Positions 10,869 to 42,650 of a DNA stretch of 64,000 nt are shown here, piece by piece; positions within the stretch are counted from its first letter, which is position 1; each line of letters starts with the position of its first letter. The DNA comes from an uncultured Clostridiaceae bacterium (lineage in GTDB: Bacteria > Bacillota > Clostridia > TANB77 > CAG-508): the NCBI GenBank assembly GCA_948356915.1, contig CAOJCG010000004.1:32163-96162 (forward strand), written 5' to 3'. Under the pieces are notes generated by a model that saw nothing but the letters and a program-made list of their open reading frames with translations, was not told the DNA's origin and ran no database searches. The position numbers were made by a program, and so were the translations under genes.

Positions 10869-11216
10869 ATGAGACCAGAAGATATAATAATAGCACCTGT
10901 TATAACAGAAAAAAGTAATGATAGTATGCAAGAAGGTAAATATACTTTCGAAGTAAACAAAAAAGCTACAAAAGTTGATATTGCAAACGCAGTAGAAAAA
11001 CTATTTGAAGTAAAAGTAATAAAAGTAAACACAGTTACTGTAAAAGGTAAAACAAAAAGAATGGGAAGATATGAAGGAAAAACATCAGACTGGAAAAAAG
11101 CAATCGTAACAATTGATACAAACCCAGGAGAAAAAACATATCTTGCAAAAGGCGGAAAAGCTACAAAAATGACTAAGAAATATAAAGATTCAATAGATGA
11201 ATTTATGGGAGCTTAG
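10869..11216 (+). CDS. rplW: 50S ribosomal protein L23 (with an atypical ~20 aa C-terminal extension)
   Basis: 115 aa; L23 core up to WKKAIVT, then [34 protein letters not shown]. Confidence 0.85.
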
Positions 11217-11220
11217 AAAT

Positions 11221-11409
11221 ATGATTAATTATAAACCAATAAATCCACATGGATTAAGTATAGGAATATGCAAAGACTGGAATTCTGAATGGTATAAAAA
11301 CGAAGATATATCACAAGAAATAGATATTAATCTTGAAAGCGTAAAAAACAATCCTAAATCTCCTATAAATAAAATTGGAAAAGTAAAAGATTGGGATGAA
11401 GAAAGATAA
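11221..11409 (+). CDS. Small ORF encoding a diverged copy of the N-terminus of ribosomal protein S3 (paralogous fragment or pseudogene)
   Basis: MINYKPINPHGLSIGICKDWNSEWYKNEDISQEIDINLE aligns with the rpsC start [39 protein letters not shown]. Shares the nucleotide 14-mer ccacatggattaag with rpsC. Confidence 0.4.
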   Translation: MINYKPINPHGLSIGICKDWNSEWYKNEDISQEIDINLESVKNNPKSPINKIGKVKDWDEER

Positions 11410-11590
11410 AAGTTATCGAGAAATAACTCGGAAAACAAAGAATATCTGCTAATACGAGGCAGGAAAAGAAAACCGTAAATAAAATTAGAAGTTAGCTGTA
11501 GGGGGCTTAATCAGTCAGGAATACTTAAGAGAATTTACCGAATTACGCCCATAAAATGCAAAACTTCCATAAAAAGGAGAGAAAAACAAA

Positions 11591-12418
11591 ATGGGAATGA
11601 AACATTTTAGACCAACAACTCCATCACTAAGAAACATGACAGTTTCTACATTTGATGAAATAACAAAGAAAACTCCTGAAAAATCTTTATTAACAGTAAA
11701 GAAAGAAAAAGCAGGAAGAAACTCATATGGTAGAATAACTGTACGCCATCAAGGTGGAGGAAACAGACAAAAATATAGAATAATTGATTTTAAAAGAAAT
11801 AAAGACGATATGAACGCTACAGTAATAGGAATCGAATACGATCCAAACAGAAGTGCAAATATCGCATTAATCGAATATGAAGATGGAACAAAATCTTACA
11901 TATTAGCACCAGTAGGGTTAACAGACGGAGATAAAGTAGTATCTGGACAAAAAGTAGATATAAAACCAGGTAACTGTATGCCAATAGAAAGCATACCAGT
12001 AGGTACATTAATACACAATATCGAATTAAACCCAGGTCAAGGTGGAAAAATGGTTAGAGCAGCAGGTCAAGAAGCTCAATTAATGGCTAAAGAAGGAAAA
12101 TATGCTCACGTAAGACTTCCATCAGGAGAAATGAGATTAGTTCTAGCAAGATGTAGAGCAACAATCGGAACAGTTGGAAACACAGACCATGAAAATGTAA
12201 AAATAGGAAAAGCAGGAAGAACAAGACATATGGGAATACGTCCAACAGTTAGAGGTTCTGTAATGAACCCAGTAGATCACCCACATGGTGGTGGTGAAGG
12301 TAGAGCACCAGTAGGACACGCAGGACCAATGACACCTTGGGGTAAACCAGCTCTAGGATACAAGACAAGAAAGAAAAATAAACAATCAAACAAAATGATA
12401 GTTAAGAGAAGAAAATAG
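11591..12418 (+). CDS. rplB: 50S ribosomal protein L2
   Basis: 275 aa, canonical L2. Confidence 0.95.
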
Positions 12419-12420
12419 AA

Positions 12421-12545
12421 TAAGTTAGAAATTAGAAGTCAGAAGTCAGAATGAAATGCATTGTATGGGCGACTAGTAGTCGTCCGCACTTCCAAGGGAA
12501 TACCCTAAATTCCGACATCCGACATCAAATTTTCGACACACAACT
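12421..12545. repeat. Heptamer-armed hairpin element (AGAAGTC arrays / TGTAKGGGCGAC hairpin core / inverted GACATCC arrays)
   Basis: agaagtcagaagtcagaa - tgaaatgcattgtatgggcgactagtagtcgtccgcacttccaagggaataccctaaa - ttccgacatccgacatc. Confidence 0.7.
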
Positions 12546-12583
12546 TTTAAAATTAATCAAAAGGGAAAGGAGAAAATTAAAAC

Positions 12584-12859
12584 ATGTCAAGATCAAGCAA
12601 AAAAACTCCATTCATTGCACCAGAATTAATGAAAAGAATTGAAGCAATGAACGAAACAGGAGCTAAAGAAGTATTAAAAACATGGTCAAGAGCTTCTACT
12701 ATATACCCTCAAATGGTAGGACACACAATAGCTGTTCATGATGGTAGAAAACATGTACCTGTTTATATAACAGAAGAAATGATAGGTCATAAATTAGGAG
12801 AATTTGCTCCAACAAGAACTTTCAAAGGTCATGCAGGAGAAAAAACAACTAAAAAATAA
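12584..12859 (+). CDS. rpsS: 30S ribosomal protein S19
   Basis: 91 aa. Confidence 0.95.
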
Positions 12860-12864
12860 ATAAT

Positions 12865-12960
12865 AGTGATACCCCCGCGCGGGACATATCTTGTCACGGG
12901 AGAAATGACCTTAGGGAAAGATGTGTCCCCGTCAGGAACTTAAACAAGATAGAATAAAAC
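12865..12960. repeat. GGGACATATCTT...AAGATGTGTCCC hairpin repeat (family G), copy between rpsS and rplV
   Basis: cccgcgcgggacatatcttgtcacgggagaaatgaccttagggaaagatgtgtccccgtcaggaacttaaacaagataga. Near-identical copies lie at 14915-15000, 15340-15525 (x2), 17875-17995, 18555-18720 (x2), 25742-25850 and 56163-56350 (x2). Confidence 0.75.
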
Positions 12961-13022
12961 ACAAAAAAAGTTAGGAACAAATTAAAATTTCTAACATCCA
13001 ATTAAACAAGGAGGGAAAAAAC

Positions 13023-13382
13023 GTGGAAAACCAAGAAGTTATAATACCAGAAGCAGTAGCAACACTTAAATATGCTAGAATTTCATCAAGAAAAGTTAAA
13101 ATAGTAGCAGATTTAATAAGAGGTAAAAATGTTGACGAAGCTTTAGCAACAGTTAAATTTACACCAAAAGTTGCATCTGAAATAATAGAAAAATTATTAA
13201 AATCAGCAATAGCAAATGCTGAAAACAACCACAATATGGCACATGAAAAATTATATGTAGCTGAAATATATGCAAATCAAGGTCCAACATTAAAAAGAAT
13301 AAGACCAGCAGCAAAAGGTTCAGCAGTTAGAATTCGTAAAAGAACAAGTCATATAACAGTGAAGTTAAGAGAAAGAGAATAA
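13023..13382 (+). CDS. rplV: 50S ribosomal protein L22 (GTG start)
   Basis: 119 aa; RBS GGAGGG. Confidence 0.9.
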
Positions 13383-13389
13383 TAAATAG

Positions 13390-13560
13390 GACAGAAGTCA
13401 GAAGTCAGAAGTCAGAATGAAAGGCATTGTAGGGGCGACTATTTCTTAGCTCTTCGAGCGTTAGCGAGTTAGAGATAAGATATGCGTTAGTGTAGTCGTC
13501 CGCACTTCGAAGAAATTACCCTAAATTCCGACATCCGACATCCGATTTCCGACATCCAAA
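13390..13560. repeat. Heptamer-armed hairpin element (same family; enlarged core loop)
   Basis: (agaagtc)x3 - ...attgtaggggcgact...agtcgtccgcacttcgaagaaattaccctaaa - (tccgaca)x3. Confidence 0.7.
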
Positions 13561-13582
13561 AAACAAGGAGGGAAAACAAAAC

Positions 13583-14242
13583 ATGGGACAAAAAATGGAT
13601 CCACATGGATTAAGAGTTGGTGTAATAAAAGACTGGGACTCAAAATGGTTTGCAAATAAAAAAGATTTTGCTAACTACCTAGTAGAAGACCACAAAATCC
13701 GTGAGTATGTTAAGAAAAAATTATATGTTAGTGGAATTTCAAAAATAGAAATTGAAAGAACTGCTAAATTTGTAAAAGTTAATGTTAACACTGCAAAACC
13801 AGGATTAGTAATTGGTAAAGGTGGAAACTTAGCAGAAAACTTAAAAAATGAATTACAAAAAATGATAGGAAAAGAAGTAAACTTAAATATAGTTGAAGTT
13901 AAAGATGTTGATTTAAATGCACAATTAGTTGCAGAAAACATCGCAGGACAACTAGAAAGAAGAATTTCATTCAGAAGAGCTATGAAACAATGTATGCAAA
14001 AAACTATGAAAGCAGGTGCTTTAGGAATAAAAACTGCAGTATCTGGAAGATTAGGTGGAGCAGACATGGCTAGAACTGAATTCTATAAAGAAGGAACAAT
14101 ACCACTTCAAACATTAAGAGCTGATATAGACTATGGATTTGCAGAAGCAGATACAACATATGGAAAAATCGGTGTAAAAGTTTGGATATATAAAGGAGAA
14201 GTTCTTCCAGCTAAGAAACAAGTGGAAGGAGGAGACAAATAA
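13583..14242 (+). CDS. rpsC: 30S ribosomal protein S3
   Basis: 219 aa, [18 protein letters not shown]... Confidence 0.95.
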
Positions 14243-14670
14243 TGCCATTAATGCCAAAAAGAACAAAATATAGAAAACAACAAAAAGGTAGAAATAGAGG
14301 AAAAGCAACAAGAGGAAATTTCGTATCAGATGGTGAATACGGACTTCAAGCAATAGAAGCAGGGTTAATTACAACAAACCAAATAGAATCAGCCCGTGTT
14401 GCTATGACTCGTTATATAAAAAGAGGTGGAAAAGTTTGGATAAAATTATTTCCAGACAAACCAATAACAAAGAAACCAGCTGAAACTCGTATGGGTAAAG
14501 GTAAAGGTGCCGTAGAATACTGGGTAGCAGCTGTAAAACCAGGTAGAGTAATGTTTGAAATAGCAGGAGTACCAGAGGAAACTGCAAGAGAAGCACTAAG
14601 ACTTGCTTCAATGAAACTATCTGTAAAAACTAAGTTTGTAAAAAAAGAAACTGAAGTAGGTGGTGAATAA
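14242..14670 (+). CDS. rplP: 50S ribosomal protein L16
   Basis: 142 aa; start overlaps the rpsC stop (TAATG). Confidence 0.95.
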
Positions 14671-14671
14671 G

Positions 14672-14875
14672 ATGAAGATAAATAAAATAAAAGAAATGTC
14701 TTCACCAGAACTAGAAAAAGAATTAGGAGAATTAAAATCAGAGCTATTCAAATTAAGATTTAGTTTAGCAACAAATGGATTAGATAATCCTATGAAAATA
14801 AAAGAAGTTAAGAAAGACATTGCAAGAATAAATACAATATTAACACAAAGAAAATTAGCAGAAAAACAAAACTAA
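14672..14875 (+). CDS. rpmC: 50S ribosomal protein L29
   Basis: MKINKIKEMSSPELEKELGELKSELFKLRF...; GTG 14660 is an alternative start. Confidence 0.85.
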   Translation: MKINKIKEMSSPELEKELGELKSELFKLRFSLATNGLDNPMKIKEVKKDIARINTILTQRKLAEKQN

Positions 14876-15011
14876 AAAATATGCGGTGGAAGGGGCTAAG
14901 CGTAGAAAAATTGACATCATTAATTCACACGTGGGGACATATCTTGTCCCAAGTGGAAATGACTTAAAATAAAGATGTGTCCCCATACCGAGGAAAGGAG
15001 ATTCATAAATC

Positions 15012-15275
15012 ATGGAAGAAAGAAATCTTCGTAAAACTTATACAGGAATTGTTAAATCAAATAAAATGGATAAAACAATAGTTGTAGCAGTAGAAACAAG
15101 TGAGAAAAACAAAACATATGGAAAAATTCAAAAAAGAACATATACATTAAAAGCTCATGATGAAAATAATGAATGTGGAATCGGAGATAAAGTAGAAGTA
15201 ATGGAAACAAGACCTTTATCAAAAGATAAAAGATTCAGACTTGTAAAAATAGTAGAAAAGGCAATTATAAAATAA
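15012..15275 (+). CDS. rpsQ: 30S ribosomal protein S17
   Basis: 87 aa. Confidence 0.95.
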
Positions 15276-15339
15276 TAAAGATATTATAACGAGACATATA
15301 TTAATCCAAGAGTGATCTTAAAAGAAAAGATGAGTTCCG

Positions 15340-15525
15340 TCATAAATAATGCGAGGAACCCCGAGTGGGACAATTTAAAGAAATGAATGCCCGGCGTGGG
15401 ACATATCTTATCCTTTAAGGAATACCATGGGGAAAGATGTGTACCCGTTAGAAATTAAAAGAATAAGTAGGGAAAAGATGTGTCCCCGTCAGAAACTAAA
15501 ACAAGATAGAGAAAAGGAGGCCAGC
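15340..15525. repeat. Two tandem family-G hairpin repeats between rpsQ and rplN
   Basis: Two units, each with gggacatatctt(a/g)tc...aaagatgtgt(a/c)ccc followed by gt(c/t)agaaa(c/t)taaaa(c/g)aa. Confidence 0.7.
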
Positions 15526-15530
15526 TAAAA

Positions 15531-15899
15531 ATGGTACAACAACAAACTATATTAAAAGTAGCCGACAATACTGGTGCAAAAGAAATAATGTGCATTAGAT
15601 GTTTAGGTGGTTCATATAGAAAATATGCTAGAGTTGGAGATGTTATAGTTGCTTCTGTTAAATCAGCAACACCAGGTGGAGTTGTAAAAAAAGGTGATGT
15701 TGTAAAAGCAGTAGTAGTAAGAACAGTAAAACCAATAAGAAGAGCAGATGGATCATATGTAAGATTTGATGAAAACGCAGCAGTTATAATAAAAGAAGAT
15801 AAAAACCCAAAAGGAACACGTATATTTGGACCTGTTGCAAGAGAATTAAGAGATAAAGATTATATGAAAATATTATCATTAGCTCCAGAGGTTCTTTAA
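15531..15899 (+). CDS. rplN: 50S ribosomal protein L14
   Basis: 122 aa. Confidence 0.95.
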
Positions 15900-16160
15900 G
15901 CTGTTAACGAAAATGTCTACTAGACATTAGAGTGTTACAGATTAAAGATGCAGGAACTTATAATTTGTTTCCGAGAGAAGCCCTTAGGCTGAAAGAGAAA
16001 TTACAAATTATTAGTTATCGCATGACTGTATAAAGAGTAGTATCTAATTAAAGATGCAAGTGAGCAAAGCGAACTTGCATACCTTAGAAAAGGCTACTTC
16101 TGACTAGCTAAAATAAAATTAAAACCTTAAAATGAAGAAAAGAAGAGGTGAAAAATAAAA

Positions 16161-16469
16161 ATGAAAATAAGAAAAGGTGACAATGTTAAAGTTTTATCAG
16201 GAAATGATAAAGGTAAAACAGGAGAAGTTTTAGAAGTAATACCAAAAACAGAAAAAATAATAGTAAAAGGTATTAATATAAGAAAAAAACATGTTAAACC
16301 AAGAAAACAAGGAGAGGAAGGCGGAATAATACCAGTAGAATGCGCTATTCACTCAAGCAAAGTAAACGTAGTTTGCCCAAAATGCGGAAAAGCTACAAGA
16401 ATTGGTTATGAAATAGAAAAAGATCAAAAAGTACGTGTTTGTAAAAAATGCAACGAAAAAATAAAATAA
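16161..16469 (+). CDS. rplX: 50S ribosomal protein L24
   Basis: 102 aa, KOW motif. Confidence 0.95.
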   Translation: MKIRKGDNVKVLSGNDKGKTGEVLEVIPKTEKIIVKGINIRKKHVKPRKQGEEGGIIPVECAIHSSKVNVVCPKCGKATRIGYEIEKDQKVRVCKKCNEKIK

Positions 16470-16494
16470 TCAGAAAAGGAGGAAAACATAGACC

Positions 16495-17034
16495 ATGGAA
16501 ACATTAAAAGAACAATACATAAACGAAGTAGTTCCAGCAATGATGAAAAAGTTTAACTATAAATCTATAATGGAAGTTCCAAAGTTAGAAAAAATAGTTT
16601 TAAACGTTGGTTTAGGAGATATAAAAGACAATCCAAAATCATTAGAGAATGCTATGAATGATATAAAATTAATTACAGGTCAATCACCAATCATAACAAA
16701 AGCAAAAAAAGCTATAGCTGCTTTTAAAATAAGAGAAGGTGTAAATATGGGATGTAAAGTTACATTAAGAAGTGGAAAAATGTATGATTTCGCATACAAA
16801 CTATTTAATGTAGCACTTCCAAGAGTTAGAGATTTTAGAGGAGTATCAAAAAATTCATTTGATGGTAGAGGAAATTACTCTATGGGTGTTAAAGAACAAC
16901 TAATATTCCCTGAAATCGAATATGACAAAGTAGATAAAGTAAGAGGTATGGATATAATCTTCGTTACAACAGCAAAAACAGACGAAGAAGCAAGAGAATT
17001 ACTAACATTATTAGGAATGCCTTTTAAAGCATAG
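16495..17034 (+). CDS. rplE: 50S ribosomal protein L5
   Basis: 179 aa. Confidence 0.95.
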
Positions 17035-17185
17035 AAGATAGAAGTCAGAAGTCAGAAGTCAGAAGTCAGAATAGTGTAAATATTAAAATGAGATTGTAGG
17101 GGCTTTTCATCGCTCTTAATTACTTCGAAAAAATTACCATAAATTCCGACATCCAACATCAGACATCCGACAGAAGAAAGGAGAA
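17035..17185. repeat. Heptamer-armed hairpin element (same family)
   Basis: (agaagtc)x4 - ...attgtaggggc...cttcgaaaaaattaccataaa - ttccgacatccaacatcagacatccgaca. Confidence 0.7.
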
Positions 17186-17190
17186 AGCCA

Positions 17191-17376
17191 ATGGCTAAAA
17201 AATCTTTAAAAGTAAAACAACAAAGAGATCAAAAATATAAGACAAGAGAATACAATAGATGTAAAATTTGTGGAAGACCACATGCTTATATTAGAAAATT
17301 TGGTATATGCCGTGTATGCTTTAGAGAATTAGCACATAAAGGTGAAATACCAGGAGTTAAAAAAGCAAGTTGGTAA
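17191..17376 (+). CDS. rpsN: 30S ribosomal protein S14 type Z (zinc-binding)
   Basis: 61 aa with CKICGRPH...CRVCFRE. Confidence 0.95.
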
Positions 17377-17408
17377 AATAGAAGCAAGAAAAGGAGGGAA
17401 AAAAGTTA

Positions 17409-17807
17409 ATGAATACAACTGATCCAATAGCAGATATGCTAACAAGAATAAGAAATGCAAACAGTTCAAAGCATAAAACAGTTGATATCCCAGCATCAAA
17501 TATGAAAAAGGCAATAGCTAAAATATTATTTGAAGAAGGATATATAAAATCATTTGAAGAAATAAAAGATGATACTCAAGGAGTTATCAGAATAACAATA
17601 AAATATGATGAAAAAGGTGTTAGAGTAATCGATGGAATAAAAAGAATTAGTAAACCAGGATTAAGAGTATATGCATCTAAAGACGAATTACCACAAGTAC
17701 TAAATGGTTTAGGAATTGCTTTAATATCTACATCAAAAGGAATAAAAACAGATAAACAAGCAAGAGCCGAAGGTTTAGGAGGAGAAGTCCTAGCTTATGT
17801 TTGGTAA
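17409..17807 (+). CDS. rpsH: 30S ribosomal protein S8
   Basis: 132 aa. Confidence 0.95.
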
Positions 17808-18012
17808 TGTAATAAAAGGGAGAATACTATAACTATTTGAACATTAATTCATAAGGGAGGGTACAGGATTTTAAGAACCTAAACCCCGCGTAGAACATAT
17901 CTTGTCACAGAAGAAATGACCATAAGAAAAGATGTGCCCTCATCAGAAACTATAAGAATTAGTGTTAAAGGTAAGGTGTCCCCTGACATTAGAAAAAGGA
18001 GGGAAAACTAAA

Positions 18013-18552
18013 ATGTCAAGAATAGGAAACAAACCTATTACTGTACCAGAAGGTGTAGAAGTAAAATTAGATGGTATGCACTTAACAGTAAAAGGACCTA
18101 AAGGAACATTAGAAAGAGAAATTCATAAAAATATGACTGTTTCAATAGATGGAAATGTTATAACAATAACAAGACCAAATGATGAACCAGAAAATAGAAG
18201 TTTACATGGATTAACAAGAACATTAATACATAACATGATAGAAGGTGTTCTAAACGAATACAAAAAAGAATTACAAATAGTTGGTGTTGGATATAGAGCA
18301 CAATTACAAGGGAAAAAATTAGTAATGAATTTAGGATATTCTCATCCAGTAGAAATGGATGCTCCAGAAGGAATTACATTTGAAGTTCCAAATGCAAACA
18401 CAATTATAGTAAGAGGAATAGATAAAGAAGTAGTTGGTCAAACAGCAGCAGTTGTAAGAACAAAAAGACCACCAGAAGTTTACCATGGAAAAGGTATTAA
18501 ATATTCTGATGAACATATTAGAAGAAAAGAAGGTAAAGCTGGTAAAAAATAA
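18013..18552 (+). CDS. rplF: 50S ribosomal protein L6
   Basis: MSRIGNKPITVPEGVEVKLDG...; RBS AAAGGAGGG. The longer ORF from 17962 runs through a repeat element and is not used. Confidence 0.9.
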   Translation: MSRIGNKPITVPEGVEVKLDGMHLTVKGPKGTLEREIHKNMTVSIDGNVITITRPNDEPENRSLHGLTRTLIHNMIEGVLNEYKKELQIVGVGYRAQLQGKKLVMNLGYSHPVEMDAPEGITFEVPNANTIIVRGIDKEVVGQTAAVVRTKRPPEVYHGKGIKYSDEHIRRKEGKAGKK

Positions 18553-18554
18553 TA

Positions 18555-18720
18555 GTTAGAACCCCGCGCGGGACAATTTAAAGAACCAAATACTCGGCGT
18601 GGGACATATCTTGTCACGGAAGACATGACCATAGGAAAAGATGTGTACCCGTTAGAAATCAAAAGAATGAGTATTAGGGAAAGATGTGTCCCCGTCAGGA
18701 ACTTAAACAAGATACATTTA
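18555..18720. repeat. Two tandem family-G hairpin repeats between rplF and rplR
   Basis: ccccgcgcgggacaatttaaag...gtgggacatatcttgtcacggaagacatgaccataggaaaagatgtgtaccc...gggaaagatgtgtccccgtcaggaacttaaacaagata. Confidence 0.7.
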
Positions 18721-18757
18721 AATTGGCAAAAACTAATTTAAGAAAGGAGAAAAGACT

Positions 18758-19117
18758 ATGATTACTAAAATAGATAGAAAGCTTACAAGAGAAAGAAGAC
18801 ATATTAGAGTTCGCAGAAAAATAAGTGGAACAAGTGAATGTCCAAGACTATGTGTATATAGAAGTAATAAAAACCTATTTGTACAAATAGTAGATGATGT
18901 TAAGCAAACTACATTAGTAAGTGCATCAACACTTGATAAAGAAGTAAAAACAAAGCATGCAAATAAAGAAGCTGCAAAAGAAGTAGGAGCTTTAATTGCG
19001 AAAAGAGCTTTAGAAAAAAATATAAAAAATGTTGTTTACGACAGAGGTGGATACGTATACCACGGTGTAGTAAAAGAACTAGCAGAAGCTGCAAGAGAAG
19101 CAGGACTAGAGTTCTAA
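18758..19117 (+). CDS. rplR: 50S ribosomal protein L18
   Basis: 119 aa. Confidence 0.95.
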
Positions 19118-19253
19118 AAAAATAAAATAAAGGAATGTAGGGGCACCGTTTGTGGGAATACCACTTTGGAAATGACACCACTGTGCCCAAGGTAGAAGAT
19201 ATATATAATTCTATAATTTCTAATATCCAAAACAGAAAAGGAGGAAAATAAAA

Positions 19254-19745
19254 GTGCAAACAGAAAATACATCTGAATTAAAAGAAAAAGTAGTTGCTAT
19301 TAACAGAGTTGCAAAAGTTGTTAAAGGTGGTAGAACATTCAGATTTAGTGCTGTAGTTGTAGTTGGAGACGAAGCTGGACACATTGGTGTTGGTAACGGA
19401 AAAGCAGCAGAAGTTCCAGATGCAATCAAAAAAGCAATAGAAGAAGCTAAAAAGAATTTAATAGAAGTTCCAGTAGTAGGAACAACAATACCACATGAAT
19501 ATCTTGGAAAATTTGGTAGTGCTACAGTAATGCTAAAACCAGCAGCAGAAGGTACAGGACTTATAGCAGGTGGTAGCGTAAGACCAGTTCTAGAACTTGC
19601 AGGTTACAAAGATATTCGTACAAAAGTACTAGGAACAAACAATCCAAGAAACGTAGTATATGCTACAATAGAAGGATTAAAGAAAATGCAAACAATAGAG
19701 CAAGTAGCTAAAAAAAGAGGAAAAAAAGTAGAAGAAATATTATAA
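19254..19745 (+). CDS. rpsE: 30S ribosomal protein S5 (GTG start)
   Basis: 163 aa. Confidence 0.9.
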
Positions 19746-19774
19746 TTTTTTAACAAGGAGGTGTAATCTCAGAA

Positions 19775-20209
19775 ATGAAATTAGACGAATTAAAACCAGC
19801 GCAAAAAACAGAAAGCAAGAAAAGAGTAGGACGTGGAATAGGTTCAGGTCTAGGAAAAACATCTGGTAGAGGTCATAAAGGACAAAAAGCAAGATCAGGT
19901 GGCGGAGTTAGACGTGGATTTGAAGGTGGTCAAACACCACTATATAGAAGATTACCAAAAAGAGGATTTACAAATATACACGCTAAAAACTATACAGAAG
20001 TAACTTTAACAATGCTTAATAAAGCTACAACTGAAGAAGTTACAGCTGAAAGCCTAATAGCAGATGGAATCATTTCAAAAGCAAATGATGGAATAGTAAT
20101 CCTTGCAACAGGTACTTTAGACAAAAAATTAACTGTTAAAGCTGTAAGATTCACTAAAAAAGCTAAAGAGACAATCGAAGCTTTAGGTGGAAAGACAGAG
20201 GTGATTTAG
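19775..20209 (+). CDS. rplO: 50S ribosomal protein L15. No L30 gene lies between rpsE and rplO.
   Basis: 144 aa, Gly/Arg-rich N-terminus. Only 29 bp separate the rpsE stop from the rplO start. Confidence 0.95.
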
Positions 20210-21526
20210 TTGTTTAAAACATTAAAAAATGCTTTAAAAACACCAGATGTTAGAAAAAGATTAATGTACACATTAATTCTAATAGTAGTGTTTAGATTAG
20301 GATGTTATATAACTGTACCTGGAGTAAATTCATTCCAGTTAGCAGAAGCTTTTAGTGGGCAAGGAATAGGGTCATTAATAGACTTAATCTCAGGAGGAGC
20401 TTTCTCAAGATTATCTATATTTGCAATGTCAATTAGCCCATATATCACAGCTTCAATTGTTATTCAATTACTAGCAATGGTAATACCAGCACTAGAAAGA
20501 TTAACAAAAGAAGGTGGAGAAGAAGGTAGAAGCAAAATAAACCGTTATACAAAAATGCTTACAGTAGTACTAGCATTAGTAGAAGGTTTAGGAATATACC
20601 TATCATATAAAAATTCAGGAATATTCATAAATTCAGAATTTATAACAGGTTTAACAGTAGTTATTTCATTAATGGCAGGAACAGCAATATTAATGTGGCT
20701 TGGAGACCAAATAACAAACAAAGGAATTGGTAATGGAATATCAGTAATTATCTTTGTTGGTATTATAGCAGGACTTCCAAGTGCAGTAACAACAATATGG
20801 AATTTAATATTCACAGCAGTAGGTTTCTCAACAACAGGACTTCTTACTGCGATAGGAATAATAATAGGTGCTATTTTGTTAGTAGCAGGAGTTGTATTTG
20901 TACAACAAGCAGAACGTAGAGTACCAGTGCAATATTCAAAAAGAGTTGTAGGAAGAAAAATGGTAGGGGCACAAAATACACATATACCATTAAAACTTGT
21001 AATGGCAGGTGTAATGCCAGTAATCTTTGCAAGTAGTTTTATGACATTCCCAGCAATGATTATTCAAATGTTTGTAAGTGACATAGCTACAAAAACAGGT
21101 TTCTGGGCAGGAGTATATAAATTCTCAATTGCAACATCAACATCAAATGTTCCTGTTGGGTATTCAATAGCAAATGCAATAGTGTACTTACTATTAATAT
21201 TAGGATTCACATACTTCTATACTTATGCTACATTCAATCCAGCAGAAGTATCAAACAATATAAAGAAAAATGGTGGATTCATACCAGGAATAAGAGCTGG
21301 AAAACCAACAACAGAATATTTATCATCAATAATATCAAAAATAACATTATTTGGTGGAATATTCTTATCAGTAATAGCAGTAATACCAATGTTATTAAGG
21401 TTTACAACACTAAATCTAGCATTTGGAGGAACATCAATATTAATCGTAGTTGGTGTAGCTTTAGAAACAGTACAACAATTAGAATCACAATTAGTAATGA
21501 GACATTACAAAGGATTCTTAGAATAA
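20210..21526 (+). CDS. secY: Preprotein translocase subunit SecY (TTG start)
   Basis: 438 aa, 10 TM, canonical SecY. Confidence 0.95.
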   Translation: MFKTLKNALKTPDVRKRLMYTLILIVVFRLGCYITVPGVNSFQLAEAFSGQGIGSLIDLISGGAFSRLSIFAMSISPYITASIVIQLLAMVIPALERLTKEGGEEGRSKINRYTKMLTVVLALVEGLGIYLSYKNSGIFINSEFITGLTVVISLMAGTAILMWLGDQITNKGIGNGISVIIFVGIIAGLPSAVTTIWNLIFTAVGFSTTGLLTAIGIIIGAILLVAGVVFVQQAERRVPVQYSKRVVGRKMVGAQNTHIPLKLVMAGVMPVIFASSFMTFPAMIIQMFVSDIATKTGFWAGVYKFSIATSTSNVPVGYSIANAIVYLLLILGFTYFYTYATFNPAEVSNNIKKNGGFIPGIRAGKPTTEYLSSIISKITLFGGIFLSVIAVIPMLLRFTTLNLAFGGTSILIVVGVALETVQQLESQLVMRHYKGFLE

Positions 21527-21540
21527 AAATAAACAATAAA

Positions 21541-39655: not shown

Positions 39656-39803
39656 GAAAAGAAAATAAAAGGAAATTGAAGATTAGAAATGATTGTAATG
39701 GAGTGCTATCAACACGTCAGTTCTTCGAAGAGATTACCTGAATTCCAACATCCAACTTCTAACTTCCAACTTCCATAAAATAAAAAAGGAGAGAAAACAA
39801 AAA

Positions 39804-41498: not shown

Positions 41499-42650
41499 AT
41501 GGAAGAAAAATTTGAGATAATGCCAATAGAACTAAATACAGATACACACAACCACACAAGGGGCTCAGATGGAAGACAAACAACATTTAGAACTATGCTT
41601 AGAGCATATAATAAAGGAATTAATACAATAGCAATAACAGACCATGATAGTGTGAAAGGTTTTAGAAATTTAGAAAGAGATATGTATTCTGTTATGGGAA
41701 CTATAAGAGCAGATAAATCCTATGATGCTTCAAAGATATTAGAAATGCTAGAAAATATGCATATAATAAAAGGTACAGAATTAATAACTTCATATAATGG
41801 TGTTATTGTAGAAGTGTTAGGGTATAACTTTGATATTGAAAAAATGGAAAGTGAGATAGCAAATTTAAAAACTACTGTTAAGGAAAAGCCATATGAAGCT
41901 TTATATAAAGGTTTCAATAAAATAATAGATGAAAAAGGTTTAAAATTTGATAAAACTGTTTTAGATGAAGCATATGAAAAAATTAAAAAAGAAGGAAAAG
42001 GTGGAGTAGTTGGTACATTCTATAATGAATTAATAAAACATGAAGAAAATAAAAAATTACTAAAATATACAGATGAAAATGGAGAAGAAAAAGAAGCGGA
42101 TACATTAAAATTATTTATAAATAAACACTTATATAACAAAGAATCTCCTTTATTTGTAGATATGTCAAGTACAAGACCAACATTCAAAAATACAATAGAT
42201 GCAATTCATAGAGCAGGAGGACAAGCATTTTTAGCACATGCAGGAAGATATAAAGATAAAATGCCAGTAGAAGAATATATTGATGATATGATACAAGAGG
42301 GGCTAGATGGTTTAGAAGTATACTATCCAGATCATACAGATGAGTTTAGACAGTTTTTATTAGGAAAAGTAAAAGAACATGGAATTAAAGCCTCAGGGGG
42401 AAGTGATGACCACCACGCTATAAAAGAAGGAATACAATACGAAACAGGAAGAGTAGCAGTTCCAAATATTCAAGAAACAAGTTGGATTTTCGAAACTTGT
42501 CAAAGTGGAAAAGACTTCTTAAATGAATCTATAGAAATTGTAGAAACTATAAAAGAGTTAAGAGAATTAAAAGAAGTTAGAAGTAAGAAAGTTAAAGAAA
42601 ATAATGAACTGGATAGACAAATAAATGAAAAACAGGAGATTTCTAGATAG
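41499..42650 (+). CDS. PHP-domain (polymerase/histidinol-phosphatase-like) metal-dependent phosphoesterase
   Basis: N-terminal HNHTRGSDG...ITDHD motifs; RBS GGAG 9 nt upstream of ATG 41499. Confidence 0.65.
   Translation: MEEKFEIMPIELNTDTHNHTRGSDGRQTTFRTMLRAYNKGINTIAITDHDSVKGFRNLERDMYSVMGTIRADKSYDASKILEMLENMHIIKGTELITSYNGVIVEVLGYNFDIEKMESEIANLKTTVKEKPYEALYKGFNKIIDEKGLKFDKTVLDEAYEKIKKEGKGGVVGTFYNELIKHEENKKLLKYTDENGEEKEADTLKLFINKHLYNKESPLFVDMSSTRPTFKNTIDAIHRAGGQAFLAHAGRYKDKMPVEEYIDDMIQEGLDGLEVYYPDHTDEFRQFLLGKVKEHGIKASGGSDDHHAIKEGIQYETGRVAVPNIQETSWIFETCQSGKDFLNESIEIVETIKELRELKEVRSKKVKENNELDRQINEKQEISR

Follow-up and report, generated by a model that had tools for sequence, protein, structure and literature searches.

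The stretch of DNA analysed here (hereafter the window; 64,000 nucleotides of contig CAOJCG010000004.1, assembly GCA_948356915.1) carries small palindromic inserts in the spacers between genes. One of them, at 12421-12545, lies between rplB and rpsS and had been flagged, together with others like it, in an earlier sequence-only reading. The host is a low-GC gut Clostridiaceae bacterium, and the inserts adjoin ribosomal-protein and other highly expressed genes. We define an element as a purine-rich array of 7-nt units (heptamers), a core and an inverse array, set in the gap from a stop codon to the following ribosome-binding site (RBS). The elements are approximately 95-165 bp long, have inverted arms, contain no open reading frame (ORF) and occur in at least 17 distinct copies in the lineage. 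We suggest, with about even confidence, that they are non-coding foldback elements, that is, palindromic microsatellites resembling MITEs (miniature inverted-repeat transposable elements) that are tolerated in the spacers of highly expressed operons. The two arms of an element co-vary, which we read as a mark of common origin, possibly also of templated repair within the palindrome. The matching arms look inherited rather than selected, and selection on the stem is not supported.

Tandem Repeats Finder (TRF) returned period-7 arrays of 2.3-5.9 copies at 18 places, starting at 9331, 9462, 9529, 12422, 12511, 13392, 13527, 17040, 17145, 24902, 25001, 26308, 27151, 27272, 39743, 52088, 52766 and 52870. 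The TRF match at 42572, absent from the earlier list, is coding sequence and not an element. The sequence-only reading had counted ten elements of one architecture. Period-7 arrays do occur at the places it named, and seven elements are complete, but two are partial and three arrays are solo, without a partner (Table 1). Its entry at 26283 resolves into a solo AATGAAT array and a separate short-armed core element, the array at 52080 is solo and has no right arm, and the left arm at 39660 is degenerate. The heptamer differs between elements, as had been stated, and falls into AGAAGTC, AGAAGTT and AATGAAT types. The inverted arms are 25-40 bp long, with 27-109 nt between them. Six of the seven complete elements have a left arm that begins 0-9 nt past the upstream stop codon, and in six of seven the right arm ends 16-31 nt ahead of the start codon, the distance at 12421 being 57 nt.

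Automatic pairing of arrays based on TRF was too strict (14 elements), and an autocorrelation detector with spacer-wise alignment was used instead. Among the 17 distinct elements, left arms with GTC (C-type) are accompanied by right arms with GAC in 9/9 cases and left arms with GTT (T-type) by AAC in 7/7; the single AATGAAT left arm goes with ATTCA, the right arm being of TATTCAC type. The summed score of each element against its own arm is 576, compared with 440±29 for permuted partners (p<5e-5; 17 elements). We then aligned 16 elements in heptad phase over 21 pairs. Paired cells make up 74.7%; shuffling lowers this to 67.4% (0/500) and sliding the register to 29-43%. Both sides change in 14 of the 21 pairs, and the covariation score is 0.282 against 0.153 in shuffles (0/500). 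The earlier claim that the arms co-vary between elements is thereby confirmed. It should be noted that this set mixes paralogues and orthologues, and so shows that arms are co-inherited and gives no tally of independent events. The arms co-vary by type, at heptad position 7 and from one whole family to another, and an element's own partner is the best available one in only 3/17 cases. The statement that the right arm always matches its own left arm was too strong, as arm identity is 62-82% and the mismatches are systematic.

The arm motifs are far in excess of chance. With at most one mismatch, AGAAGTYAGAAGTY has 15 matches where 0.19 are expected (14/15 on the + strand), and the right-arm pattern TCYRACMTCYRACM has 13 where 0.38 are expected (12/13 on the + strand). 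Ordinary microsatellite expansion or chance, with partners that are unrelated to each other, would account for the three partnerless arrays (9330, 26308 and 52086), and is in keeping with the abundance of arbitrary heptamer arrays in public data and with unit numbers that vary in microsatellite fashion. We find this explanation scarcely credible, since motif counts reach ~30-80 times chance and the seven complete elements refute it, both by their own arms against permuted ones (p<5e-5) and by the loss of pairing, from 75% to 29-43%, when the register is slid.

The elements are inferred to be transcribed from their placement between co-directional operon genes. Folding predicts the long, 7-periodic hairpin that the sequence-only reading had envisaged, with a mismatch every few pairs. 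On the sense strand its predicted minimum free energy lies between -25 and -39 kcal/mol, with z-scores from -2.0 to -5.3. The antisense strand is predicted to be the stabler one in every case (z -3.0 to -6.6). In the predicted sense folds the Shine-Dalgarno sequence is mostly unpaired.

The shared core is a module separate from the arms. It reads TTGTAGGGGCGAC-loop-GTCGTCCGCAC, with GTAG at its start and then an imperfect, GC-rich palindrome, the signature of repetitive extragenic palindromic (REP) sequences, and it is also found armless. With at most one mismatch, TTGTAGGGGC has 12 matches, dispersed in intergenic DNA, where 1.07 are expected, and CTTCGAAGAAATTACC has 9 matches at up to three mismatches where 0.6 are expected. 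The core had been described as often shared. It is full only at 12421, 13390 and 26283, partial at 17035 and 39660, and reduced to its right half at 9328 and 52757; the elements at 24892 and 27125 lack it. A metagenome scan with a 21-mer of the core returned only three contigs (L407-L409), too few for a large covariation set; all three carry an arm-less core, in one case in the rplN/rplX spacer of a different low-GC organism. Arm-less cores also occur in L007 and L398. A core on the minus strand lies at 52036-52085, and inverted doublets are found at 51962/52036 and in L398. Core-less elements (L140, L010) have a perfect inner palindrome, GGTAAAT-A-CTTCGAAG-A-ATTTACC, with the centre TTCGAA. 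A 23-nt stretch of core at 12467-12489 is identical to 26408-26430, yet the arms are of GTC/GAC type at 12421 and of GTT/AAC type at 26372. That the unit differs around a nearly identical core argues, in line with the sequence-only reading, against one fixed protein-binding iteron. Replication iterons were rejected as a match: they are direct repeats of ~17-22 bp with a fixed sequence, located by rep genes or origins, whereas the units here are 7 bp long and variable, form inverted arms and lie in ribosomal-protein and clp operons.

Variation among relatives and the question of selection on the stem

A further 26 contigs, taken from metagenome-assembled genomes (MAGs) or metagenomes, encode the exact RpsS, ClpP and RpsD proteins. 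The ribosomal-protein genes are 94-99% identical among these relatives (84-96% for L005), and every spacer alternates between ~16-30 nt and 100-260 nt (11 loci). The same sites are filled variously, by heptamer elements of other type, by arm-less cores and by inserts of two or more unrelated, hairpin-rich families. In the S10>L3 spacer of L001, a different insert lies in the same older-hairpin loop that holds the 9462 element. Array length, raised earlier as a property that might vary between strains, does so by whole units: L007 has one more unit on both arms (L2>S19), L010 has many more units on both arms (L5>S14), L404 has one unit fewer, and L001 has one more left unit than L002 with an identical right arm (S8>L6).

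The second insert family, CCCCGCGCGGGACATATCTTGTCAC...GATGTGTCCCCGTCAG(A/G)AAC, is unrelated to the heptamer elements and occupies other ribosomal-protein spacers, some with two copies. It lies at 12860-13022, 14876-15011, 15276-15530, 17808-17961 and 18553-18757 in the window, and also in L001-L010; its presence varies among relatives and it has no Rfam match. The third family, GGAGAACACTATAGCTATTTGAACACTAATTCACAAGGGGAGGGG...GTGTCCCCTGACAT, is found at 17808-17870 in the window and in the L24>L5, S14>S8, S17>L14, L6>L18 and S5>L15 spacers of L001-L010, with other inserts nested inside it in some loci. The rplN>rplX spacer (261 nt, 15900-16160) is the same at nearly every base in the window, L001-L004, L006 and L008, is absent from L005, where only 18 nt separate the genes, and is different in L007. 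It has no Rfam match and could be a structured leader or a further old insert.

The sequence-only reading had argued from the covariation for selection on the stem, and here the evidence, beginning with covariation that is by type, turned against it. Each heptad consists of 2+3 pairs with single mismatches between them: of the 16 elements, 12-14 lack a pair at position 4 and 8-9 at position 1. Transition differences between the arms, read on the transcribed strand, are of A·C type in 32 cases and of G·U type in 12. This is the reverse of what selection on an RNA helix is expected to give and fits the A-skew of the sense strand. The + strand of the window is 45% A overall at a G+C content of 29%, and third codon positions of the ribosomal-protein genes on that strand are 61% A, with G and C at 6-7% each. 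The related locus L391 encodes an identical ClpP, and its clpP third positions differ from those of the window by 16%. The arms differ by ~12-14% (hand count), which is about the synonymous rate; none of the seven changed columns is compensatory, and pairing goes from 28 to 26 of 34. In L402, approximately five changes lie in the left arm and none in the right.

We propose that an element is one imperfect palindrome. Its outer 7-nt arrays, (A/G)GA(A/G)GT(C/T) or AATGAAT on the 5' side and the inverse complement on the 3' side, would enclose an inner palindrome GGTAAAT-CTTCGAAG-ATTTACC centred on TTCGAA, into which a separate REP-like GTAG hairpin would often have been inserted. The arms would match through descent from one inverted duplication; slippage would then homogenise each arm, and template switching within the palindrome may add to this. 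If the arms share such an origin, purifying selection on the helix is unnecessary for their match. The A-skew of the sense strand would erode G to A in the left arm, and this erosion would give rise to the A·C mismatches and to an orientation that appears uniform. The transcript probably folds back, drawing the upstream stop codon near the next, mostly unpaired RBS, and the inserts may be tolerated inside operons because of this folding. The elements grow and shrink by whole units.

Several observations weigh against the foldback interpretation. The ortholog sample is small, and both the covariation and the helix register are clearly above the shuffled and slid controls. All full elements share one polarity relative to transcription and sit exactly from stop codon to RBS, which would fit an RNA function too. 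The two-arm co-expansion in two orthologous pairs (L007, L010) requires selection or a coupled mechanism, and right arms with 36% C in a 12%-C genome are either young or constrained. We found no target-site duplication or clean junction among the filled and empty alleles, which differ in their flanks and stop codon; the insertion into the S10>L3 hairpin loop is clear, and it too lacks a duplication.

A selected cis-acting RNA hairpin must be taken seriously as a rival. The constant placement and the two-arm co-expansion speak for it, and we consider it possible though on balance unlikely. The 7-periodic imperfect stem would be kept for RNase III processing, mRNA stability, downstream translation or coupling, on the model of the 5' untranslated region (UTR) of hmw in H. 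influenzae (PMC12721329). By analogy with that precedent, the regular mismatches could limit cleavage. Such a function would explain the sense-strand z-scores (predicted, down to -5.3), covariation that exceeds both controls, stop-to-RBS placement with the binding site left free in the predicted folds, uniform orientation relative to the genes, and arms that lengthen together in L007 and L010. It would not be expected to leave each site dispensable in some close relative, nor to yield an A·C excess (32 to 12) on the sense strand while the antisense strand folds better. The absence of compensatory changes among the ortholog differences, changes confined to one arm, arms that evolve at about the synonymous rate, and the solo arrays at 9330, 26308 and 52086 also argue against it.

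Distribution and polarity in other phyla

Three exact copies of AGAAGTY in tandem were found in 69 stretches of viral contigs, with 27-70% G+C, and in at least 120 genome stretches from many phyla. Among the matches listed are Acidobacteriota, Cyanobacteriota, Bacteroidota, Planctomycetota, Verrucomicrobiota, Nitrospirota, Chloroflexota, Proteobacteria and Firmicutes. Many of the AGAAGTY arrays are followed by an inverse array after 10-140 nt, and the centre between them is not conserved. We rejected the idea that AGAAGTY is a special heptamer. Controls of the same composition gave 47 and 26 viral stretches compared with its 69, and ARTGAAT gave more than 120; control heptamers thus form arrays about as often, indicating that heptamer arrays are generic and not specific to AGAAGTY.

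Where the queried units have an inverse partner in public loci L011-L390, it follows the purine-rich array on its 3' side in 52 cases and precedes it on the 5' side in 4. About one quarter of the bystander arrays have an inverse partner within 250 nt. Of 114 such partnered arrays, 81 have a purine-rich 5' arm, 29 a neutral one and 4 a pyrimidine-rich one. This polarity, with the purine-rich arm 5', holds on both strands. A cross-phylum strand test, relating the A·C bias to gene orientation, gave contradictory results (TT versus BB classes) and was discarded as confounded, both by the choice of a perfect AGAAGTY array as the left arm and by crude ORF orientation calls in high-GC DNA.

The viral contig L066 (49% G+C) has adjoining TCAGTTA, AGAAGTT and AGTGAAT/AATGAAT arrays at ~4830-4960. 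The last two are unit types of the window, and TCAGTTA is the reverse complement of the TAACTGA repeat of Beggiatoaceae.

The recurrence of the same unit in distant phyla and the fixed polarity of the pairs bear on whether the arrays are double-stranded DNA binding sites, that is, convergent sites that a nucleoid-associated protein, global regulator or transposase would bind cooperatively. Heptad positions 2, 3, 5 and 6 (G, A, G, T) are near-invariant across C-type and T-type units, as binding sites could be, and the paired class 1-3 arrays of Geobacter have been proposed to play such a role, with insertion sequence (IS) elements at fixed distances from class 1 sites (PMC2700814). We nevertheless think this reading improbable. 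Units differ within one genome (AGAAGTC, AGAAGTT, AATGAAT), even around the same core, and the two arms are not the same site (AGAAGTC compared with the reverse complement GGATGTC). The elements are intra-operonic and not at promoters, a 7-bp spacing sets successive sites on different faces of the helix, and there is no candidate binding protein and no transposase among the ten window ORFs searched against Pfam.

A functional DNA secondary structure, with cruciforms or hairpins acting in replication, recombination or supercoiling control, is very unlikely in our view. Arms that are inverted repeats of 25-40 bp, set a short to moderate distance apart, could form one, and a polarity rule that is equal on both strands is what a property at the DNA level would give. 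Cruciform extrusion would however be unfavourable with two of seven positions mismatched and spacers of 27-109 nt, the sites are dispensable between strains, and there is no link to an origin or recombinase gene within the window. Protein-binding and cruciform functions are both less likely.

Taking the phyla together, we offer a speculation that we would not ourselves back at present. Paired heptamer arrays may belong to a single class that spans phyla, made up of palindromic microsatellites that template themselves and have a fixed polarity. Hairpin-templated copying, or a process coupled to transcription or RNase III of the kind suggested for H. influenzae, would keep the arms in register. 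The polarity would be a co-transcriptional constraint (for example, the C-rich arm never being exposed unpaired to Rho), and in this Clostridiaceae lineage the arrays would have been recruited as hairpins that bridge stop codon and RBS in essential operons.

The lineage is a compact natural experiment, as dozens of spacers in essential, near-identical operons are empty, filled or differently filled, with unit types side by side. The joint change of the arms and the importance of an RNA hairpin become directly measurable here, and the polarity across phyla constrains any model for the origin of paired arrays. For genome annotation, these spacers are repeat inserts and not conserved ribosomal-protein leaders.

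Elements and neighbouring features of the window

The S10, spc and alpha ribosomal-protein operons occupy 9001-28800, the window also carries proS and tig-clpP-clpX, and nearly everything is encoded on the + strand. The elements are listed in Table 1.

Table 1. Heptamer elements, solo arrays and REP-like cores in the window
Position	Strand	Type	Description
9330-9360	+	Solo purine-rich array	GGAAGTT AGAAGTT AGAAGTT GGAGGTT AGA; begins 3 nt past the S10 stop, ~100 nt upstream of the 9462 element in the same spacer
9462-9564	+	Complete, T-type, S10>L3 spacer	Left arm 9462-9501 (TTAGAAG x5.9); right half of core 9502-9528 (CTTTAAAGAAATTACCCTAAT); right arm 9529-9564 (TCCAACC-type); occupies the loop of an older hairpin GCTA(A/G)TG...CATTAGC
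12422-12545	+	Complete (12422-12526), C-type, flagged element	Left arm 12422-12451 (AGAAATT AGAAGTC AGAAGTC AGAA); core 12452-12507, REP-like hairpin TTGTATGGGCGAC-TAGTA-GTCGTCCGCAC plus CTTCCAAGGGAATACCCTA; right arm 12508-12526 (TTCCGACATCCGACATC); degenerate tail 12527-12545; between rplB stop (12418) and rpsS ATG (12584)
13392-13557	+	Complete, C-type	Left arm 13392-13417 (CAGAAGT x3.7); core 13418-13523, REP-like hairpin as at 12422, loop carrying a ~57-nt insert; right arm 13524-13557 (TCCGACA x4.4)
17033-17172	+	Complete, C-type	Left arm 17033-17071 (AGAAGTC x4.6), first unit overlapping the rplE TAG stop codon; core 17072-17141; right arm 17142-17172
24896-25037	+	Complete, AATGAAT-type, infA/rpmJ spacer	Left arm 24896-24930; loop 24931-24996; right arm 24997-25037 (TATTCAC x5.3); no shared core
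26308-26345	+	Solo AATGAAT/AGTGAAT array	One unit fewer in L404; adjoins the separate core element 26372-26466
26372-26466	+	Partial (short arms), T-type	Left arm AGAAGTTAGATAG and right arm CTAACTTCAGAAT round a REP-like core
27147-27305	+	Complete, T-type	Left arm 27147-27187, beginning immediately past the rpsD TAG stop; 78-nt loop; right arm 27266-27305 (TCTAACC x4.7); rpoA ATG at 27322
39664-39777	+	Partial, upstream of proS	Degenerate left arm 39664-39692; core 39693-39742 (TTGTAATGG...CTTCGAAGAGATTACC); strong right arm 39743-39777 (TTCCAAC x4.7)
51962-52116	.	Inverted pair of REP-like cores, upstream of clpP	51962-52005 on +, 52036-52085 on -, then solo AATGAAT/AGTGAAT array 52086-52116
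52759-52897	+	Complete, mixed C-type, clpP/clpX spacer	Left arm 52759-52792 (GAGGTCG GAAGACA GAAGACA GAGGTCG GAAATT); loop with right half of core (CTTTGAAGAAATAACCCT); right arm 52863-52897

The S10>L3 spacer (9330-9564) holds two left-type arrays (9330, 9462) and a single right array. The predicted minimum-energy fold pairs the distal 9330 array with the right arm, in competition with the 9462 array, and two alternative structures may thus be possible.

TAG stops end four of the seven array-adjacent genes that we checked in the window (S10, L2, L5 and S4), which seems frequent for 29% G+C. An array can reach into the upstream gene at its 3' end and provide the TAG stop (window 17032-17034 and 27144-27146). 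The end of rplE in L001 (L5>S14) reads ...ttt aga agt TAG AAGTTGG, and the end of rpmC in L010 (L29>S17) is similar. Two candidate properties of the units were rejected. Stops in all three frames are not a general property, being true of TAGAAGT and AATGAAT (within three units) but not of AGAAGTC. Mimicry of the Shine-Dalgarno sequence or its complement seems unlikely as well: AGAAGUC is a poor partner of the anti-Shine-Dalgarno sequence, and only units like GGAGGTT look like a Shine-Dalgarno sequence.

A search with Rfam 15 gave no matches at the gathering score across the 64 kb, including the regions upstream of proS and the ribosomal-protein operons, and no matches at E<=1 in 9000-28000. 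Ten ORFs of the window, which is 64 kb of the genome, were searched against Pfam; among these we found no transposase domain and no REP-associated tyrosine transposase (RAYT).

Apart from the heptamer elements, a 52-nt unit forms a near-perfect tandem duplication at 49579-49686 (2.1 copies, 98% match, TRF score 209), in the spacer preceding the ORF at 49868. On the minus strand, an acyl-ACP (acyl carrier protein) thioesterase at 61109-61832 is broken into two overlapping ORFs, and 43940-44197 encodes an 85-aa fragment of a HAD hydrolase. These two sets of fragments suggest gene decay in the lineage.

Comparison with known repeats

The sequence-only reading did not recognise a described repeat class. 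A full-text literature search found no paper that prints AGAAGTC or AGAAGTT arrays, but convergent or paired heptamer arrays as such have been published for Xanthomonas (PMC4692102) and Geobacter metallireducens (PMC2700814). In Xanthomonas, Rehm et al. (2015) describe 70-75 nearby pairs of GGGAATC arrays, one per strand and always convergent. These arrays are intergenic and mostly transcribed; their lengths differ between related species, and the solo or paired status is usually kept. The seven complete elements share the arrangement as convergent heptamer pairs on opposite strands. The Xanthomonas work differs in that a single G-rich unit type was studied for G-quadruplex formation, and no unit variation, arm covariation or core is reported.

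For Geobacter metallireducens, Aklujkar et al. (2009) describe a class 3 of eight opposite-strand pairs, with five MTYCTGA heptamers per site and a variable spacer, one pair being intra-operonic in the proB/proA spacer (PMC2700814). In their account, sister classes have other units and are also paired, and classes 1-3 are proposed to be sites for a regulator or for IHF/HU. The reverse complement of MTYCTGA, TCAGRAK, covers TCAGAAG, a rotation of AGAAGTC, a likeness that concerns the published consensus alone. The Geobacter arrays differ in their high-GC deltaproteobacterial host and in their interpretation through a global regulator, and the paper mentions no REP-like core.

Among long simple repeats in prokaryotes, heptanucleotides are over-represented more than any other class (Mrazek 2007, cited from the summary in PMC4679880). 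Heptamer arrays known as long simple sequence repeats (LSSR) or short tandemly repeated repetitive sequences (STRR) are intergenic and patchy across phyla; they often lie a short distance upstream of start codons, those of ribosomal-protein genes among them (PMC4679880). The TAACTGA repeat occurs as 169 direct sets and one indirect set (MacGregor 2015, PMC4679880). The elements of the window resemble LSSR and STRR arrays in having at least three head-to-tail 7-nt units and whole-unit differences between strains. The LSSR, STRR and TAACTGA repeats, in contrast, are mostly single direct arrays, described without a palindromic partner or core.

In the hmw 5' UTR of H. influenzae, (ATCTTTC)n is one arm of an imperfect RNA hairpin that is cleaved by RNase III and required for expression (PMC12721329). 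The likeness lies in a transcribed heptamer array that serves as an arm of a long mismatched hairpin, which in our case is a prediction. The hmw array differs in having a non-repetitive G-rich partner arm and a pyrimidine-rich arm on the 5' side, in being a single locus in a phase-variable promoter or UTR where ours form a dispersed family, and in a function that was experimentally shown.

The GTAG and GC-rich imperfect palindrome of the core, its intergenic dispersal and its inverted doublets are features of REP sequences and of REPINs, which are paired REPs (e.g. PMC3116915). Like MITEs, the elements are small, non-coding, palindromic and multicopy, with inverted arms and a presence that varies between strains; they depart from MITEs in arms that vary between copies, where MITEs have conserved terminal inverted repeats, and no target-site duplication was seen. 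Inverted arms made of short tandem repeats are also a feature of the eukaryotic Foldback transposons. Paired heptamer arrays are thus a little-studied type of repeat that has already been noticed in other bacteria.

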